Source of the DNA: Candidatus Nealsonbacteria bacterium
GTDB taxonomy: Bacteria; Patescibacteriota; Minisyncoccia; Minisyncoccales; PWPS01
Assembly: GCA_003551435.1 (NCBI GenBank)
Contig: PUMQ01000006.1
Coordinates: 1 to 51,208 of the forward strand
Length of the DNA: 51,208 nucleotides
Direction of reading: 5' to 3'
Position numbers and translations under genes: made by a program. The notes beneath the pieces were generated by a model. The model saw only the letters and a list, made by a program, of their open reading frames with translations, ran no database searches and was not told where the DNA came from. This document shows positions 10,628 through 32,501 of this stretch, in pieces (the stretch's first letter is position 1; the number at the start of each line of letters is the position of its first letter).

Positions 10628-10820
10628 CCCGTACCGCTGCTTTTAGCTCGGCGCCGGGTAGTTATTAACTTTTACTTGTCTTCAAAATTTTGTCATAACG
10701 TTGTAGTGAAAATTCATTATTTCCGTCCGGCAAGAAAAACAAAGCTTCGCCTTGCTAAACGAAATTTTACAACGAATTTCTACTGCATTGTATGATATAA
10801 TATTTTTTAAAAAAAGTCCA
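10628..10820 (-). promoter_or_regulatory. Internal tuf promoter and structured 5' leader
   Basis: TGGACT-N17-TATCAT (10820-10792); long G-U-rich hairpin 10703-10783; second hairpin 10628-10658. Confidence 0.6.
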
Positions 10821-10827
10821 ATACGAA

Positions 10828-10915
10828 CTGGCGCCTGGCACTTAACATCTGATAACTAACACTTAATATCTGACTGTTAAATTAAGCTGTCAGTTGTTAG
10901 GTGCCAAGTGCCAGG
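10828..10915. repeat. Palindromic degenerate heptamer array after the fusA stop
   Basis: CTGGCGC CTGGCAC TTAACAT CTGATAA CTAACAC TTAATAT CTGACTG, then inverted TGTCAGT TGTTAGG TGCCAAG TGCCAGG. Confidence 0.85.
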
Positions 10916-10917
10916 AT

Positions 10918-13035
10918 TCAGGAACCTTTGTTAATAATTTCCTGCGCGATATTATAAGGAACCTCCTTATAACTGTCAAACTCCATGGAATAATTCCCTC
11001 TTCCCTTGGTAAGTGAACGCAAATTTGTCACATAACCGAACATCTCGGCAAGCGGAACCTTGGCGCGAATAATTTTCTGTGCTCTCTTCCCTTTCGTTTC
11101 CTCGGTAGAGTGCACTTCTCCCCTTCTTGAGGAAATATCTCCCATTACATCCCCCAAGTATTCGGGGGGAATAACCGCCTCTACACTCATTATCGGCTCT
11201 AGTATAACCGGGTCAGCATTTTTATATGCTTCTTTAAATCCGATAGACCCCGCTATTTTAAAAGCCATTTTTGAAGAGTCAACCTCGTGGAAAGATCCGT
11301 CAAAAAGAGAAGCTTTTACATTAACAATCGGATACCCGGCCAAAACTCCCTCATCCATTACTTCCTCAATGCCTTTTTCTACCGCGGGGATAAACTCTTG
11401 AGGGATAACCCCTCCTTTTATCTCATCAACAAATTCCAGTCTTTGCCCTTCTTCAGGAGAAAGAGGCTCTATTCTCAGTTTTACATGGCCATACTGCCCC
11501 CTTCCTCCGCTTTGCTTGATATACTTTCCTTCCGCTTCCGCCGGCTTTCTAATAGCTTCTTTGTAAGCTACCTGAGGCTGGCCGGCTTGCGCTTCAACTT
11601 TAAACTCTCTCTTCATCCTGTCGATGATGATATCCAGATGAAGCTCTCCCATGCCCGAAATAATAGTTTCTCCGGTTTCTACGTCTCCCGTTGTTCTGAA
11701 AGTGGGATCTTCTTCCGCCAATTTCCGAAGAGCAATGCCCATCTTTTCTTGATCTTCCTTTGTTTTTGGCTCTACCCTTATAGAAACTACCGGCTCCGGG
11801 AAAGCGATATCTTCCAAAACAACCGGTCTATTTTCATCACAAAGAGTGTGCCCGGTGGAAGTCTCCTTGAGCCCTACTGCTGCTACGATGTCGCCTGTAT
11901 ATATGTTCTTCAGCTCTTCGCGTTGATCCGAGTGCATACGGAGAATTCGGCTGATGCGCTCTTTTTTGCCCGTGTTGGCGTTAAGAACATAAGACCCTCC
12001 AGAAAGTTTTCCTGAATATACACGCATAAAAGTCAAACTTCCCACGTAAGCATCGTTTGCAAGCTTAAAAGCAAGAGCGGTAAATGACTCCTCGTCATCG
12101 GCCTTTAGCTTTATAGGATCTTGGCTCTTCGGATCTCTTCCTTCGGTTTCTAAAAGATCGGTAGGGGCCGGAAGATAGTGGCAAACAGCATCAAGAACCG
12201 GCTGGACTCCTTTGTTTTTTAACGCAGAACCGCAAAAAACAGGTATTATTTTATAGGCTAGAACCGCTTTTCTTAAAACCTCCCTTATCTCCTCTTCTTT
12301 TATTTCCATTCCTTGAGTATATTTTTCAAAAAGGTTTTCGTCCTCGGTAACTATTTTTTCAAGTGTTTCGTTTCTCCATTTTTCCACTTTTTCTTTCATC
12401 TCTTCCGGAACTTCCTCTTCTTTAACAGTTTCTCCGAAATCTCCCTCAAAGCGAATCATTTTTCTTCCCATAAGGTCAATTACCCCTTTAAAATTTTCTT
12501 CTTCTCCGGCCGGAATCTGCATCACCGCAAGGTCAGTGGTTAATTTTTCTTTTATAGAATCAATGGCATCTTCAAAAGAAGCGCCTGTCCGATCCATCTT
12601 ATTGATAAAACAAATACGCGGAACACGGTACTTATCCGCCTGCCTCCAAACCGTTTCCGATTGGGGCTCTACACCGGCAACTCCGTCAAAAACAACCACT
12701 GCCCCGTCCAGTACGCGCATTGATCTTTGCACTTCCGCGGTAAAGTCAATATGCCCGGGAGTGTCAATGATATTTATCCTGTACTCGTTTTCCTTTTTTT
12801 TCTCTTCTCCCAAGGGAACCCAAAAGCAGGTAGTTGCCGCAGAAGTAATAGTAATTCCTCTCTCTTTTTCCTGTTCCATCCAATCCATTACCGACATCCC
12901 TTCGTGAGTTTCCCCTATCTTGTGGGAAATCCCGGCATAAAAAAGAATCCGTTCGGTAACGGTTGTTTTGCCCGCATCAATGTGAGCAATAATCCCTATA
13001 TTCCTATATCTGTCTAATGGATATTCTCTGGCCAT
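10918..13035 (-). CDS. fusA: Elongation factor G
   Basis: [34 protein letters not shown]. Confidence 0.99.
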
Positions 13036-28976: not shown

Positions 28977-30118
28977 TTTCCTGATATTTTTCTTAACCTT
29001 TCCACTATCGGAGGAAGTTTTTCCAGAAAATAATCCACCTCTTCTTCTGTTGTGTATCTCCCCAGGGTAATACGCAAAGACCCGTGTGCTCTCTCTCGGG
29101 AAAGGCCGATAGAAAGGAGGACGTGTGACGGAGAAAGAGAGTTTGACGCGCAAGCAGAGCCGGTGGAAACGGCTATTTTTTCGTTATCAAGAGCCATCAT
29201 CAAACTTTCTCCCTCAGCTCCTTCAACGGTAATATTTACGTTATTGGGAAGCCTTCTTTCCCTTTCCCCGTTAAGTTTTGTCTCGGGAATTTCTTTTAAA
29301 ACAAAATCAATAATTCTGTCACGTAACTTTTTTGTTTCTTCCGAATCATTTTTCTTAATCTCTTCTAAGGCAAATCCGAGCCCAGCGAAAGCGAAAACAT
29401 TTTCCGTTCCCGGGTAAAAGCCTTTTTCCTGAGAGGCCCCGAAAAGAATAGGCGACATGGGGGTTTTTTCTCTCACATAGAGCGCGGCCGCCCCTTTCGG
29501 TCCGTATATTTTGTGTCCGCTCATCGTGAGAAGATCTACTTTCAATTTATCAACCTTGCACGGCAAGTAATTTACCGCTTGAACAGCGTCGGTATGAAAG
29601 ATAATTTTATTTCTCCTTTTCTCGTTTTCCTTTTCAATTATTTTCCCGATTTTGCCTATGGGCTGGATTGTCCCTATCTCACTATTGGCATAGCCGATAG
29701 AAACAAGCACCGTGTTTTCTTTTATCGCTTTTTTTACATCCTCTTCTTTTATTACCCCCTCTTTATAAACAGGGAGATAAGTTACCTCCGCCGAAGAGTT
29801 TTTTAACGGCTCAATCACTGCCTTGTGTTCAATAGCGGAAGTCACTACGTGCGGTTTTTCTTTTTTTTGGAGAGCTCCCTGAATCGCTACGTTATTTGCT
29901 ACCGTAGCCGAGGGCATAAAAATAATTTCCCTTTCTTTTGCTCCAAAAAACCTAGCTACACTCTCTCTTGCTCTGTCTAAAGCAAAAACAGCCTCCTGCC
30001 CAAAGGCATGCAAAGAAGAAGGGTTTCCAAACTTCTCCTCTAAAAAGGGAGTAATTTTTTCTGCAACCCCTTTGTCAACCGGCGTAGTTGCCGCATAATC
30101 AAAATATATTTTTTCCAT
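28973..30118 (-). CDS. iscS: Cysteine desulfurase, group I
   Basis: YFDYAATT, HTDAVQ, SGHK, STGSAC; true start MEKIYFD. Confidence 0.96.
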   Translation of the reverse strand: MEKIYFDYAATTPVDKGVAEKITPFLEEKFGNPSSLHAFGQEAVFALDRARESVARFFGAKEREIIFMPSATVANNVAIQGALQKKEKPHVVTSAIEHKAVIEPLKNSSAEVTYLPVYKEGVIKEEDVKKAIKENTVLVSIGYANSEIGTIQPIGKIGKIIEKENEKRRNKIIFHTDAVQAVNYLPCKVDKLKVDLLTMSGHKIYGPKGAAALYVREKTPMSPILFGASQEKGFYPGTENVFAFAGLGFALEEIKKNDSEETKKLRDRIIDFVLKEIPETKLNGERERRLPNNVNITVEGAEGESLMMALDNEKIAVSTGSACASNSLSPSHVLLSIGLSRERAHGSLRITLGRYTTEEEVDYFLEKLPPIVERLRKISGK

Positions 30119-30166
30119 ATTTTTTACTCTCTCATATCCATCTCCGGGACAGACATGGAAAAACAG

Positions 30167-30250
30167 TGCCGGGGGCGGGGCTCGAACCCGCAAGGACTTG
30201 CGTCCACAGCATTTTGAGTGCTGCGTGTTTTCCAATTTCACCACCCCGGC
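30167..30250 (-). tRNA. tRNA-Leu(CAA), CCA not encoded
   Basis: GCCGGGG/CCCCGGC-A acceptor; CAGCA-CTCAAAA-TGCTG; long variable arm; GGTTCGAGCCC. Confidence 0.96.
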
Positions 30251-30263
30251 TTTAAGCCTCAAT

Positions 30264-30292
30264 ATTCTACCTAAAATTCCTTCTCTTGTAAA
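30264..30292 (-). promoter_or_regulatory. Promoter of the tRNA-Leu/thiolation operon
   Basis: TTTACA-N17-TAGAAT. Confidence 0.7.
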
Positions 30293-30317
30293 TCTTCACT
30301 GCCGGTAGAAGTATGTT

Positions 30318-30343
30318 AAAAGCCCGGCAATAAAGCACCGGGC
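30318..30343 (-). terminator. Terminator closing the micro-protein module
   Basis: GCCCGG...CCGGGC followed by UUUU. Confidence 0.7.
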
Positions 30344-30372
30344 CTTTGGGTATTAGTACAACAAATTCTTGC

Positions 30373-30573
30373 TTACTCGTACTGGTTATAGAAATGCGTA
30401 TCCGGGAGACTTCTCGGCATATCTTGCAGCTCTTGCAGTTCCATTTTTACTTTTTCAAGGCGATTCCTGCATCCTCTTATCTCGTATTCATCGCCGTTTT
30501 CTTCTGCTTTTTCAAGCTTTTTTTGGCACAGTAACAGCTTTTCCTGGACGGAGCCTACGTCGTCATTCCTCAT
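30373..30573 (-). CDS. Small helical-hairpin hypothetical protein (paralog 2)
   Basis: MRNDD... 66 aa (or 78 aa from 30609); shares KK[IL]E and G[DE]EY-x8-LEK[LV]K with the upstream ORF. Confidence 0.68.
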   Translation of the reverse strand: MRNDDVGSVQEKLLLCQKKLEKAEENGDEYEIRGCRNRLEKVKMELQELQDMPRSLPDTHFYNQYE

Positions 30574-30601
30574 CCTTTCACCCCTTTCGCAAGTTTTGGT
30601 A

Positions 30602-30808
30602 TCAAGCATCCGGAAAAAATTCGGGAAAACTTTCCTTTAATTTTCTTTCTTGTGACTTGAGTTTTTCTAAATCTATCTCTATGCTTTGCAACAAGTACTC
30701 TTCGCCTGCATTTTTTACTTCTTTATTTTTTAAAGATTTTTTCTTCTTTGCCAACTCCTCTATCTTTTTGCGAGTGCAGGCAATATCTTCTTTGATTACT
30801 TCGTCCAT
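30602..30808 (-). CDS. Small helical-hairpin hypothetical protein (paralog 1)
   Basis: 68 aa with coiled-coil periodicity; AGGGAG upstream of ATG. Confidence 0.72.
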   Translation of the reverse strand: MDEVIKEDIACTRKKIEELAKKKKSLKNKEVKNAGEEYLLQSIEIDLEKLKSQERKLKESFPEFFPDA

Positions 30809-30973
30809 TTTTTATCTCTCCCTTGTTGTACTTTTATAAAAAGAACTAGCTCCTTTTCTTGGTCCCGGAGGAAAAGCGAAAATTACCGAAAGCGCTTTGA
30901 AAGGGTATCGCGCCTTTAAAAAGGTAACGCCCACTTTTCTCTCCAGGCCCGAAGAAAAATCCTCGGGTCTGAA

Positions 30974-31092
30974 GAAAAAAATCCCTTTTTTGAGAAAGGG
31001 AGGTTATGTTAAAGGTAAAAAGCAAACCTCCCTCCCTAAGAAGGGACGAGAATAAGAAGCGCTGCTTTTTTAAAAATTTTTCTCATAATCAT
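30974..31092 (-). promoter_or_regulatory. Candidate translation-coupled transcription attenuator
   Basis: 18-codon leader ORF (31036-31092) plus mutually exclusive 1:2, 2:3 and 3:4+U7 hairpins. Confidence 0.6.
31036..31092 (-). CDS. Putative leader peptide MIMRKIFKKAALLILVPS
   Basis: Starts about 8 nt after the predicted TSS; stop codon lies inside attenuator segment 2. Confidence 0.5.
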   Translation of the reverse strand: MIMRKIFKKAALLILVPS

Positions 31093-31106
31093 TCCGCGAT
31101 TGTCGT

Positions 31107-31134
31107 ATTATATATATTTTTATAATTTTGTCAA
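31107..31134 (-). promoter_or_regulatory. Consensus sigma70 promoter
   Basis: TTGACA-N16-TATAAT. Confidence 0.8.
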
Positions 31135-31158
31135 ATAAAAAGCCTTTTCTTTGGAAAA

Positions 31159-31692
31159 TTACCGGCGAGAGTTCTTTTTACCAATGATTTTGAAAATTTC
31201 ACTAATTACAATGCCTCCAAAAATTCCCACTAAAGCGCCGGCAAAAACGTCAAGCGGCCAGTGCATTCCCGTAATCACCCGGGAAACGCCAGCTATAAAA
31301 GACAAGGCAAATAAAGCGGTTCCGGGCTTTCTGTAATGGAAATAAACAACAGTAGAAAGAGCAAAAAGAAAAGCGATGTGCCCGGAAGGAAAAGAAAGGC
31401 TCTCCTTGTAGGGAAGCAAAAGATTCACGTTTTCCAGCACTTCAAAAGGGCGCAGACGGGGAAAGAAGTGCCTAAGAGGCCAAACCAAAGCATACCGGGC
31501 AAAAAATCCCGCTAAGATAACTTCTCCCGAAAAGAGACCGTATTTTTTCAAATTGCGCAAAGGGAGATAAGCAAAAGGAATAATAAAAAGATAGGGGGTG
31601 ATCTGGGCGAAAAAGAAAAAGAGAAAATCAAGGAAAAAATAATTTCCCGAGAGACTGTTTAGAAAAAGAAAAAGTGATTGCTCAATATTCAT
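31159..31692 (-). CDS. PAP2 family phosphatase (BcrC-like undecaprenyl-PP phosphatase candidate)
   Basis: RLRP, SFPSGH, SRVITGMHWPLDV; ATGA overlap with folD. Confidence 0.92.
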   Translation of the reverse strand: MNIEQSLFLFLNSLSGNYFFLDFLFFFFAQITPYLFIIPFAYLPLRNLKKYGLFSGEVILAGFFARYALVWPLRHFFPRLRPFEVLENVNLLLPYKESLSFPSGHIAFLFALSTVVYFHYRKPGTALFALSFIAGVSRVITGMHWPLDVFAGALVGIFGGIVISEIFKIIGKKNSRR

Positions 31693-32501
31693 TTTGCCAA
31701 ATTGAAAAGATTGGATGCCAAGCAATAAATAGTTAAAGGTCCCACTCCTCCGGGAACAGGAGACAGTATCCCCGCTTTTTTTTCTACGCTTTCTATATCT
31801 ACATCTCCCTTAAGTTTTCCGGAAGCAATGCTTGTCCCCGCATCGATTACTACCGCCCCTTCTTTTATCATGCTTCCTTTGACAAGTTCCGGGACTCCCG
31901 CTCCGGAAACAACAATGTCCGCTTGCTTTGTGTAATAAGCTGCATTTTCCGTATAACGGTTAAGAAGAACAACCGTCGCTCCTTTGTGGGCAAAGAAAAC
32001 CATTAAAGGTTTTCCCACCAAGTCTCCCGATCCGATAAGCGCTACTGTTTTCCCCTTACGCGACACCCCGTATTCTTTAAGAATTATTTCAACCGCTCCT
32101 GCAACCGGTGGAAGATTTTCAAAAGCACCCGAATAAAACTTTCCGCAAGAAAAAGAAGTAAGCGTATCGGCATCTTTCTCGAAGGGAACAGCGTTTAGTA
32201 TCTCTCTTTTGTCAAATTTTTCGGGAAGAGGAAGTTGGATAACTATCCCCTTTTCGGTAAAACGGTTAATTTCTTTTTTAAGGTCTTCCGCGGAAACTTC
32301 TTCCGGAAAGCGGTAAAAAGAAACGGGGATACCGTTTCTTTCCAAGGTTTTCTTTTTGGCGTTTACATAAATATCGGAAACCGGATTTTCTCCAACTTGC
32401 ACTACCGCCAAAGAGAGAGAGGCATTCCCTCTCCTTATTTTCTCCCGAAGTTCTGTAAAATTCTCCTCCGCCAGCTTTTTCCCGTCAACAATTTTGGCCA
32501 T
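31689..32501 (-). CDS. folD: Methylene-THF dehydrogenase/cyclohydrolase FolD (divergent)
   Basis: IVDGK, QLPLP, LVGKP, VIDAG, GDVD, PVPGGVGP. Confidence 0.93.
   Translation of the reverse strand: MAKIVDGKKLAEENFTELREKIRRGNASLSLAVVQVGENPVSDIYVNAKKKTLERNGIPVSFYRFPEEVSAEDLKKEINRFTEKGIVIQLPLPEKFDKREILNAVPFEKDADTLTSFSCGKFYSGAFENLPPVAGAVEIILKEYGVSRKGKTVALIGSGDLVGKPLMVFFAHKGATVVLLNRYTENAAYYTKQADIVVSGAGVPELVKGSMIKEGAVVIDAGTSIASGKLKGDVDIESVEKKAGILSPVPGGVGPLTIYCLASNLFNLAK

Follow-up and report, generated by a model that had tools for sequence, protein, structure and literature searches.

A leader region on the minus strand of the window (the whole 51,208-nt stretch of DNA analysed here) is on balance probably a trp/leu/ilv-type transcription attenuator, governed by the ribosome through a leader peptide with a near-leaderless start, that controls one or two orphan coiled-coil ORFs. 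The parts of this reading are established at the level of sequence: a promoter, a conserved short ORF, three alternative helices, a U run, and a covarying RNA beyond it that has no promoter of its own. From these we infer translation of the ORF, termination at the hairpin, and read-through caused by a stalled ribosome. The comparative evidence from the homologous leader sequences is decisive for an arrangement that exceeds chance.

The leader lies downstream of a glyA-folD-PAP2 operon, whose PAP2 stop codon is at 31159, and begins with a sigma-70-type promoter, TTGACA-16-TATAAT, at 31107..31134 (minus strand, read from 31134 to 31107). This promoter matches the consensus at 12/12 positions, is the only perfect one among five promoter-like sites in 29500-32500 (shuffles, 3.7 +/- 2.5), and has a TTGACA-type equivalent in the same position in 11/11 homologous leaders. 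The leader follows the same PAP2-family gene in 9/28 genomes of the family, with covariance-model scores of 28-79 bits, and two further distinct leaders from metagenomes bring the total to 11; loci L117, L109 and L099 duplicate G007, G009 and L071 and were left out of the count. All searches used the single-sequence covariance model R1, which limits their reach beyond the family; with this model and stricter filters, the element was not found in 147 genomes of the order's other families. Weak matches in G015 (16.7 bits) and G012 (16.2 bits) have no promoter, ORF or hairpin layout and were rejected, as was L138 (32 bits), a metagenome locus that consists of a tandem repeat and has no ORF.

The leader ORF, MIMRKIFKKAALLILVPS, has 18 codons followed by TAG and occupies 31036..31092 on the minus strand (ATG at 31092, TAG at 31038-31036). 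A short ORF of 14-18 codons lies directly 3' of the promoter in 11/11 leaders, and its lengths of 14, 15, 16 and 18 codons indicate indels in multiples of three. The frame is open in all 11, the remaining two frames in 3/11 and 2/11. The final nine codons have a coding-like substitution pattern with mostly third-position changes: among the four closest leaders, codons 8-16 have 2/2/6 variable sites at codon positions 1/2/3, and their pairwise differences comprise 14 synonymous and 15 non-synonymous changes. Codons 2-7 of the same leaders have 6/6/6 variable sites and 4 synonymous vs 30 non-synonymous differences, and the two other frames give 7 vs 56 and 4 vs 56. The peptides end in the pattern K-x-K-L-[LIF]-[LIV]-[VI]-x-P-x. 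Leu, Ile, Val and Phe predominate at codons -3 to -7, with three to seven per leader, and Pro stands at -2 in 10/11 leaders and at -1 in one.

The distance from the -10 hexamer to the ATG is 6-9 nt in 10/11 leaders and 14 nt in the window, and none of the 11 has a Shine-Dalgarno sequence before the ORF. An ATG this close to the -10 box, with no Shine-Dalgarno sequence, suggests that the leader ORF has a near-leaderless start close to the expected transcript start. Elsewhere in the genome, a survey of 137 promoter-like sites, made with no formal control, finds six ORFs of at least 60 codons that begin 6-11 nt after a good -10 element, suggesting that leaderless starts are usable in this organism.

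Four minus-strand segments in and after the ORF can form three alternative helices. Segment 1 (31040..31070) is internal to the ORF and contains AAAAAGCA, CUUCUU and UCCCUUC, while the Shine-Dalgarno-like segment 2 (31017..31037) starts within the stop codon with AGGGAGGGAGGUU and continues with UGCUUUUU. Segment 3 (30993..31005) is AACCUCCCUUUCU, and segment 4 (30975..30988) is AAAGGGA plus U7, which a terminator scan identifies as the 3' arm and U tract of an intrinsic-terminator-like hairpin. Segments 1 and 2 pair in a core of 7 pairs, UCCCUUC (31046-31040) with GGAGGGA, and a larger 1:2 hairpin of -20.0 kcal/mol adds AAAAAGCA (31070-31063, in the ORF) with UGCUUUUU (31024-31017). The antiterminator is formed by segments 2 and 3, AGGGAGGGAGGUU (31037-31025) with AACCUCCCUUUCU (31005-30993), over 13 pairs including 2 G-U at -18.7 kcal/mol. 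In the terminator, segment 3 instead pairs with segment 4, UCCCUUU (31001-30995) with AAAGGGA (30988-30982), at -7.3 kcal/mol, and the U7 follows at 30981-30975. The sequence GG(G)AGG lies 0-6 nt beyond the stop codon in 11/11 leaders. The consensus promoter, the leader ORF, the 1:2 pairing, the 13-bp 2:3 pairing and the trp/ilv-like logic of four segments had all been claimed in the preliminary description and are present, the four-segment logic being conserved in 11/11 leaders. The larger 1:2 hairpin had been missed, and the terminator it described exists with a loop of 6 nt (CUCAAA) rather than 5.

The helices are predicted throughout the set. In 9/9 genomes the 1:2 hairpin has -15.6 to -22.6 kcal/mol, the 2:3 helix -12.1 to -18.7 kcal/mol, and the 3:4 hairpin with its U run -6.0 to -9.2 kcal/mol, and folding of both metagenome leaders predicts the same three helices and the U run. 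Each terminator has a short stem of 6-8 pairs, after which the window has U7 and the remaining leaders have similar U-rich tracts that are in some cases interrupted. Duplexes between ORF and loop average -10.5 kcal/mol with their own partner vs -6.9 with the partners of other genomes, and the ORF-to-loop complementarity is above that of shuffles in 5/9 genomes (p <= 0.02). The 137-nt leader fold has a mild excess of stability (z = -1.95, 7/200 shuffles equally stable), and the 298-nt entire leader a clear one (z = -4.22, 0/200 shuffles as stable).

Covariation across the 11 distinct leaders is well above the shuffled expectation, with 91.3% of cells paired (shuffles 76.1 +/- 1.0) and two-sided changes in 38/60 pairs (shuffles 20.5 +/- 2.6), each value reached by 0/500 shuffles; the alignments behind these counts were fitted to a model derived from the fold of the window itself. 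Two-sided changes occur in 8 pairs of helix 1. Covariation lends no support to the 3:4 helix, in which 81.4% of cells are paired, the same as in shuffles; 329/500 shuffles do as well. Conserved leader codons and covarying stems had been proposed earlier as a check on the attenuator; the ORF and the helices are conserved in 11/11 leaders, the 3:4 helix without covarying.

Past the terminator, the minus strand encodes a module of two hairpins, which begins 7 nt past the U run in the window. Hairpin 2 (30948..30967), CCCGAGG...CUUCGGG, directly follows the U tract and has 8 pairs, of which 6 are changed on both sides, with 94.3% of cells paired. Hairpin 3 (30864..30947) is long and irregular, with the apical loop AUACCCUUU; its shape is seen in the individual folds of 8 genomes, and its helices 3-6 have 24/30 pairs changed on both sides, or 30/38 for helices 2-6 of the two hairpins together. 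Directly 3' of it is a single-stranded ACCA (30860..30863), invariant in 10/10 leaders having hairpin 3, and the leader comparison also identifies a conserved Shine-Dalgarno-like AAGGAG(G) at 30850..30855 with no start codon after it. The promoter scan found no promoter-like site between the U run and the start of the downstream ORF. Covarying hairpins without their own promoter imply that read-through past the terminator must occur. G010 lacks both hairpins and retains the 5' module alone (promoter, ORF, segments 1-4 and U run), which points to the 5' module as the conserved core. The two-hairpin and ACCA module, like the near-leaderless start, had been overlooked in the preliminary description.

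As an RNA motif, the covarying hairpin with its invariant ACCA has no known counterpart. Bacterial RNase P recognises hairpin substrates with a 3' RCCA end, such as tRNA acceptor ends and precursor 4.5S RNA, and hairpin 3 may resemble these, in that its 3' strand is followed by single-stranded ACCA and its 5' strand starts right after another helix. Unlike those substrates, it has no cloverleaf or T loop and no Rfam match related to tRNA, tmRNA, SRP or RNase P. CCA is encoded in about 10/45 tRNA genes of this genome. At the gathering score, Rfam 15 matches only two tRNAs in the window and only tRNAs at seven homologous loci and the C14 locus (see below), and a permissive scan of 30500-31400 gave a top sub-threshold match of 27 bits, to a microRNA model with a cut-off of 66. 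A known RNA family was ruled out on these grounds, the remaining matches being far sub-threshold microRNA-like hairpins. The combination of ORF and ACCA, and the failure to detect an SRP RNA, also prompted comparison with tmRNA, SRP and 6S RNA, which were rejected because the element is in 9/28 family genomes and hairpin 3 is absent in G010. The tmRNA lies on another contig, as does the RNase P RNA. The apical loop is not of the GNRA/SRP domain IV kind; SRP RNA was undetectable across the family, and the SRP protein partners were undetected in this genome.

In the proposed mechanism, transcription would begin a few bases before the ATG, and the 14-18-codon ORF would be read without a Shine-Dalgarno sequence by near-leaderless initiation. 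On RNA free of ribosomes, segment 1 would pair with segment 2 (GGGAGG and the following bases), segment 3 (CCUCCC) would then pair with segment 4 (AAGGGA) ahead of the U run, and transcription would stop; an alternative nested fold, with 1:4 around 2:3, would have the same end point at the U run. Once a ribosome had reached the stop codon, it would mask segment 2, which begins inside or right after the stop, and the 3:4 terminator would re-form. To cover segment 1 and leave segment 2 free, a ribosome would have to be held some 3-6 codons short of the stop, at Leu, Ile, Val or Phe. The freed segment 2 would pair with segment 3, leaving segment 4 single-stranded, and RNA polymerase would read through into the two-hairpin and ACCA module and the mRNA for one or two small orphan coiled-coil proteins.

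The effect of a ribosome was modelled by equilibrium folding of the 11 leaders with a ribosome footprint. The mean predicted pairing probability of segment 4 is 0.87 on ribosome-free RNA and 0.94 when the stop codon occupies the A site. In 6/11 leaders the probability drops to <=0.25 when the A site holds one of codons -3 to -6, which are mostly Leu, Ile, Val or Phe. Release is partial in 2/11 (G010, 0.42, and M132, 0.45) and does not occur in 3/11 (G007, 0.71, M071, 0.71, and G009, 0.92), because in these three the 2:3 and 3:4 helices overlap by 3-4 bases only. The equilibrium modelling clearly supports the switch in 6/11 leaders only.

The first putatively regulated gene is a 68-aa coiled-coil ORF at 30602..30824 (minus strand, including the Shine-Dalgarno sequence AAGGGAGAG at 30824-30816), and the second is probably a 78-aa coiled-coil ORF at 30373..30609 on the same strand. 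The 68-aa ORF belongs to no Pfam or NCBIfam family and has no homologue among 5.8 billion proteins. The 78-aa ORF has no family at the curated cut-offs of Pfam and NCBIfam and shows weak similarity to its 68-aa neighbour (E = 4e-4), and the downstream ORFs are weakly alike between genomes. Searches of Pfam, NCBIfam, the ESM Atlas and the 5.8 billion proteins gave nothing usable on function, and family and homology searches found no link of the targets to any amino acid. The preliminary description had called the downstream genes non-biosynthetic, which agrees with their being orphan coiled-coil ORFs. Its premise that bacteria of the CPR generally lack amino-acid biosynthesis fits this 0.6-Mb assembly, in which at least two markers of the branched-chain pathway, IlvD and LeuB/Iso_dh, are absent. 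A second locus in the same genome (C14) has a like layout, with a Lys-rich short ORF before a DHDPS-family gene; in relatives, the C14 leader gave only short promoter-like matches.

The earlier proposal of branched-chain aminoacyl-tRNA sensing is possible, but the homologue MVQNPRKAKLIVPS has only one Leu, one Ile and one Val codon, and the CUU/CUC and CCU codons of the ORF also pair with the GGGAGG segment. Hydrophobic codons constrained by this pairing may make the Leu/Ile/Val run a by-product of the RNA structure. Within the attenuator reading, a shortage of Leu/Ile/Val-tRNA as the specific cause of stalling is a tentative and somewhat doubtful suggestion, and the remaining weight falls on a general slowing of elongation or on peptide- or drug-dependent arrest. 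A link to the neighbouring tRNA-Leu(CAA) was rejected, as this gene is on the opposite strand in 5/7 loci and reads UUG, where the leader has CUU/CUC.

The strength of covariation in hairpins 2 and 3, rather than in the attenuator helices, together with the invariant ACCA and an ORF without a Shine-Dalgarno sequence, also suits a structured cis-acting leader or processing RNA whose short ORF has no regulatory role. Hairpin 1 and the U run would then be a constitutively leaky terminator or a mere structural domain, and hairpin 2, hairpin 3 and ACCA could be, for example, a protein-binding site, an RNase P-type processing site or a translational operator; the ACCCUU of the apical loop and the conserved AAGGAGG hint at Shine-Dalgarno/anti-Shine-Dalgarno-like contacts. 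This account is somewhat unlikely, since G010 keeps the 5' module without these hairpins, the frame, length class and third-position pattern of the ORF are conserved, and the stop codon always adjoins segment 2. The constraint on the final nine residues at the amino-acid level, and termination as the predicted default state, would fit a small RNA gene for a functional micropeptide, spanning about 125 nt between promoter and U run and closed by the terminator, with read-through incidental. Precedents for a leader peptide with a function of its own and for a small RNA derived from an attenuator come from the reports on peTrpL/rnTrpL. Such a gene is improbable here, because the N-terminal half is unconstrained, peptides of 14-18 residues with 3-7 hydrophobic ones are too short for a membrane span, and neither the three competing helices that overlap the end of the ORF nor the promoterless covarying RNA past the U run would be explained.

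The same constraint, concentrated within the part of the peptide that would lie in the exit tunnel, could instead reflect an arrest leader, in which the nascent C-terminus (..L-I-V-P-x-stop) stalls the ribosome at or near the stop when a small molecule or a compound that binds the tunnel is present, and does not respond to aminoacyl-tRNA supply. The stalling signal may be a peptide, a metabolite or a drug. Like the leaders here, known arrest leaders carry Pro close to the stop codon and short motifs that are hydrophobic and beta-branched. The Pro codon is, however, always CCU and part of the CCCUU pairing segment, so that its conservation is explained by the RNA, and a ribosome placed at codons -2 to 0 in the footprint model masks segment 2 and favours termination over read-through. 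The downstream genes, moreover, are neither resistance nor transport genes, and we regard an arrest leader as quite unlikely. A macrolide-type +x+ stall motif was rejected, being found in only 5/11 peptides and at a site where termination is the modelled outcome. The hairpin and U run may also end transcripts of the glyA-folD-PAP2 operon, given that the hairpin is the first terminator after the PAP2 stop codon and that the ORF would be untranslated on a transcript coming from upstream, which should end there. That this is their main role, with the promoter-like site and ORF arising by chance in an AT-rich spacer, is very improbable: the promoter is perfect and conserved in every leader, the distance from the -10 to the ATG is maintained, and in the 16 element-free relatives whose region downstream of PAP2 was read, other genes directly follow PAP2. 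Termination of the operon does not, in any case, compete with the attenuator reading, and the two roles can coexist.

The attenuator reading places this leader beside the enterobacterial attenuators (trp, his, pheA, thr, leu, ilvGMEDA and ilvBN), of which the leu and ilv leaders carry hydrophobic Leu/Ile/Val codons at the stall position. It shares with them a promoter-proximal ORF (about 14-30 codons), mutually exclusive 1:2, 2:3 and 3:4 pairings with a U run after 3:4, and, judging from the geometry, a stop codon placed where a terminating ribosome would mask segment 2. The Leu/Ile/Val codons of the leaders described here would likewise lie at a stall-competent position. Unlike the enterobacterial leaders, those described here have no Shine-Dalgarno sequence and an ATG 6-9 nt after the -10, have 3-7 branched-chain codons and no long runs, precede orphan coiled-coil ORFs in a genome without the IlvD and LeuB markers, and continue past the terminator into a covarying two-hairpin and ACCA module. 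Targets that synthesise, charge or take up the sensed amino acid are absent here; they are a trait of the amino-acid-operon subclass, not of the mechanism. The preliminary description had called this the best candidate for an undescribed system; it would be an undescribed member of a class whose mechanism is itself known.

Other leaders are instructive for the targets and the terminated product. As reported for the antibiotic-responsive bmrCD and mef/mel leaders of Firmicutes, translation of a short ORF decides terminator read-through before non-biosynthetic genes (PMC4191407, PMC4335068). They share with the present leader a short upstream ORF and an intrinsic terminator before genes unrelated to amino-acid synthesis, and differ, as far as those reports describe them, in their transporter or resistance targets and in their leader peptides. 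In Sinorhizobium, rnTrpL/peTrpL is described as an attenuator-derived small RNA with a functional leader peptide (PMC7298713, PMC7968998). The terminated product here would similarly be a small RNA of about 125 nt with a 14-18-codon ORF and could act in trans, its leader having a different amino-acid context from the one in these reports.

The attenuator and the RNA motif beyond it could also be the two stages of one device, although we consider this a long shot. A leaderless arrest peptide would report the state of translation, that is, free ribosomes, elongation capacity or a tunnel-binding compound, and read-through would then release the tRNA-acceptor-like ACCA hairpin. All four switching segments are Shine-Dalgarno- or anti-Shine-Dalgarno-like, so that free 30S subunits could bind them directly. 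The ACCA hairpin might be cut out by RNase P or mimic an uncharged tRNA, and the coiled-coil proteins that it accompanies would be fast-evolving and ribosome-associated.

Leader-peptide attenuation is usually taught for the amino-acid biosynthetic operons of free-living bacteria, and a limited literature search found nothing linking it with Patescibacteria. The attenuator proposed here would place this logic in a 0.6-Mb genome, with a near-leaderless ORF, and in control of small orphan proteins only. If this is correct, it would offer a compact 110-nt and comparatively well-sampled switch for study in vitro. Ultra-small bacteria that depend on a host or community would then read their nutritional or translational state by translation-coupled RNA switches, and the orphan coiled-coil proteins would belong to that response.

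The PAP2-family gene ends at 31159 on the minus strand and is followed on that strand by a TTGACA-16-TATAAT promoter (31134-31107), which matches the consensus at 12 of 12 positions, as the preliminary description had noted. The leader ORF, MIMRKIFKKAALLILVPS*, runs from an ATG at 31092 to a TAG at 31038-31036 (minus strand), and reading this strand gives no Shine-Dalgarno sequence upstream of it. Three competing pairings follow: segment 1 with segment 2 (UCCCUUC with GGAGGGA, 7 pairs), segment 2 with segment 3 (AGGGAGGGAGGUU with AACCUCCCUUUCU, 13 pairs, -18.7 kcal/mol), and segment 3 with segment 4 (UCCCUUU with AAAGGGA, -7.3 kcal/mol), the last preceding U7 at 30981-30975. The ORF and all the pairings originally named are present in the window, with two amendments. 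The terminator loop has 6 nt rather than 5, and the extent of the 1:2 pairing had been understated, because the ORF-internal AAAAAGCA also pairs with UGCUUUUU just 3' of segment 2; the full 1:2 hairpin folds at -20.0 kcal/mol. The 137-nt leader alone is only mildly more stable than its shuffles (z = -1.95), and for the full 298 nt to the next start codon z is -4.22, with none of 200 shuffles equally stable. The element matches no family in an Rfam search and is present once in its own genome (599 kb, 21 contigs).

A DNA search of 60 relatives gave extended matches in five genomes, in all of which the element follows the same PAP2-family gene and has the promoter, the short ORF and the same hairpins. 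R1, a covariance model derived from the window's sequence and fold alone, finds the element in nine of 28 family genomes at 28-79 bits. These are seven of 14 in the window's genus (its own genome counted) and both of those in a second genus; two weaker matches were discarded after inspection. The 16 family genomes with the PAP2 gene and without the element have other genes directly after it. R1, as a single-sequence model run with stricter filters, matched nothing in 147 genomes from other families of the order. Scanning metagenome contigs for the pattern gave 78 stretches. After screening with the model and inspection, four distinct true homologues remained, two new and two duplicating known genomes; one homologue appears under two loci, L071 and L099, and was counted once. 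The distinct leaders total 11.

In an alignment of these leaders, fitted to the window-derived model and so biased towards structure, the modelled structure has 91.3% of its cells paired; shuffles give 76.1 +/- 1.0, and slid partners no more than 59.7%. Both sides have changed at 38 of 60 pairs, compared with 20.5 +/- 2.6 in shuffles, and none of 500 shuffles reached either observed value. Both the slid controls and the abundance of double changes speak for a genuine signal, most of all in hairpins 2 and 3, which lie beyond the U run. Conserved leader codons and covarying stems had been proposed as a check; the ORF is conserved, and the structure as a whole covaries. Considered by itself, the 3:4 helix fits every sequence (81.4% of cells paired) but has no covariation to support it.

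An ATG lies 6-9 nt downstream of the -10 hexamer in ten of the 11 leaders, and 14 nt downstream of it in the window. This spacing suggests a leaderless start for the short ORF, with a predicted 5' untranslated region of about 0-3 nt. The ORF is 14, 15, 16 or 18 codons long, with its end 0-6 nt upstream of GG(G)AGG; the alternative frames are open in just three and two of the 11 leaders. The peptides conform to x(4-5)-[RK]-K-x-x-L-[LIFVP]-[ILV]-...-P-x-stop. Among the four closest leaders, variable sites in the last nine codons number 2, 2 and 6 at codon positions 1, 2 and 3, and pairwise differences there are 14 synonymous to 15 non-synonymous. Codons 2-7 show no such restraint (6, 6 and 6 sites; 4 synonymous to 30 non-synonymous), and the corresponding figures in the other frames are 7 to 56 and 4 to 56. 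A translated ORF of which the distal codons alone are important would be predicted to give this pattern, seen here in a small sample where pairing constrains some of the bases. Elsewhere in the genome (contigs C3, C4, C8, C11, C15 and C17), six ORFs of at least 60 codons, two of them longer than 500, start 6-11 nt after a good -10 hexamer; these counts, made without a formal control, suggest that the organism has leaderless mRNAs.

The three alternative helices are predicted in all nine genomes that carry the element, at -15.6 to -22.6 (1:2), -12.1 to -18.7 (2:3) and -6.0 to -9.2 kcal/mol (3:4), and a U run follows the 3:4 helix in each. The ORF interior is complementary to bases past segment 2, with a mean duplex energy of -10.5 kcal/mol for its own partner against -6.9 kcal/mol for partners from other genomes, and exceeds shuffles at p <= 0.02 in five of the nine. 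The ribosome was modelled as a 28-nt unpaired footprint in equilibrium folding. Averaged over the nine genome leaders, segment 4 has a pairing probability of 0.87 when no ribosome is placed and 0.94 when the A site is on the stop codon. Placing the A site at codons -3 to -6, which are mostly Leu, Ile, Val or Phe, lowers it to 0.25 or below in six of 11 leaders, partially in two and not at all in three. In the leaders without release, 2:3 and 3:4 overlap by just 3-4 bases and can coexist at equilibrium, so that segment 4 stays paired.

Hairpin 2 (30967-30948, minus strand) begins 7 bases past the U run, and the long hairpin 3 (30947-30864, minus strand) lies immediately 3' of it. A single-stranded ACCA (30863-30860, minus strand) is invariant in the 10 leaders that have hairpin 3, and is followed by a conserved AAGGAG(G) with no start codon after it. 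Across the 11 leaders, 30 of 38 pairs in helices 2-6 have changed on both sides. Hairpin 3 with ACCA is reminiscent of the stem-then-RCCA arrangement of tRNA acceptor ends and RNase P hairpin substrates; only about 10 of 45 tRNA genes in the genome encode CCA. Its apical loop has the motif A(A/U)ACC(C)UU in eight of 10 leaders and is complementary to Shine-Dalgarno-like segments (AAGGG-type) within the same leader. Between the U run and the next start codon there is no promoter-like site, so the conserved downstream RNA can arise solely by read-through of the U run. This need for read-through is the strongest indirect argument that termination there would be conditional. One family genome, G010, keeps the promoter, ORF, segments 1-4 and U run and lacks hairpins 2 and 3; the two modules are thus separable, with the attenuator part as the core.

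Upstream of the leader are glyA, folD and the PAP2-family (undecaprenyl-diphosphatase-like) gene, and downstream are one or two small, highly charged coiled-coil ORFs (68 and 78 aa in the window, 58-127 aa in the six of the other eight genomes that were readable). These match no family, in keeping with the earlier statement that the downstream genes are not biosynthetic. The 68-aa ORF has no homologue among 5.8 billion proteins, and the coiled-coil ORFs of different genomes are only weakly alike. The next gene, tRNA-Leu(CAA), is on the opposite strand in five of seven loci checked, which would confine the regulated unit to the coiled-coil ORF(s) and exclude iscR-iscS-iscU beyond. In the family's second genus (loci L049-L056), a conserved palindrome, ATAATACCGAGTAGATnACTCGGT, lies 3' of PAP2 and in several genomes precedes an Rrf2/IscR-type gene, named from its translated sequence; it looks like an operator site. 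Neither IlvD nor Iso_dh/LeuB family genes were found in the window's own genome, which has a RelA/SpoT homologue.

We give a little better than an even chance to the element being a leader-peptide transcription attenuator. Termination would be the default state, occurring also when translation proceeds smoothly to the stop codon, and a ribosome held 3-6 codons ahead of the stop would cause read-through. The preliminary description had proposed a sensor of branched-chain aminoacyl-tRNA shortage or ribosome stalling. A shortage of Leu/Ile/Val-tRNA would agree with where the codons lie, what they encode and the auxotrophy, but one leader has a single Leu, Ile and Val codon each, and these codons are also required for pairing with GGGAGG. 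The observations are matched just as well by a general slowing of elongation or by an arrest that depends on a peptide or a drug. A structured leader in which the ORF is irrelevant would share the covarying helices and has the retained ORF and its distal codons to account for; we consider it unlikely. The shared peptide pattern would suit a small RNA encoding a functional micropeptide or an arrest-peptide sensor, and both are improbable to a like degree. A plain terminator of the upstream operon is compatible with the attenuator reading; as an account of its own it is very improbable.

As an attenuator, the window leader would follow the same logic as those of trp, leu and ilv, and sequence features support its membership in this mechanistic class, although no cognate biosynthetic operon accompanies it. 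It differs from them in a near-leaderless ORF, few regulatory codons, orphan targets, appended covarying RNA with ACCA, and a host genome of 0.6 Mb. A literature search on Patescibacteria with leader peptide and attenuation gave nothing pertinent among the matches listed.

The signal recognition particle (SRP) pathway was not detected across the window's own genome and 60 relatives from its order. The genome has no small or large SRP RNA, no Ffh M domain, neither SRP54-type GTPase (Ffh, FtsY) and, in six frames, no DTAGR motif of these GTPases; the sole D[TS]AGR match, DSAGR, lies within an unrelated ORF. None of the 28 family genomes yields an SRP RNA. The GTPase domain exceeds the cut-off in only three of 61 genomes (window's own included), with one strong match, in a genome 68% complete. 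The controls were positive in 12-14 of 14 reference genomes (seven of 14 for the large SRP RNA model), and nothing pertinent to this observation was among the literature matches listed.

The leader layout was sought genome-wide as a promoter with an ATG 4-15 nt beyond it, opening an ORF of 6-35 codons, and a hairpin plus T run after that. Just two loci have it: the window leader and L057, on the minus strand of contig C14 at about 10640-10870. The C14 promoter, TTGACA-16-TACCAT, is followed after 9 nt by the ATG of MSLTNQKTKKEKKGLLRGRG, which has five Lys in seven consecutive codons. At the ORF end GGGGAAGAGGUU can pair with AAUCUCUUUCCCC, which can alternatively pair with AAAGAGAU, followed by U7; the leader has a 2:3 and 3:4 helix pair and a U7 run, with a further hairpin. 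R1 scores it weakly (18 bits), the footprint model gives a shallow dip only, to 0.53, at the Lys cluster, and DNA similarity shows no conservation among family relatives. Upstream of this leader (about 10880-11000, minus strand), another TTGACA promoter-like site precedes a GC-rich structured stretch ending in a hairpin and T run, which may be a small RNA. The C14 leader lies upstream of a DHDPS-family gene (Pfam PF00701, E = 3.5e-21) and of a MurB-like gene, named from its translated N-terminus. This second leader hints at the use of codon-specific leader peptides in this organism without proving it.
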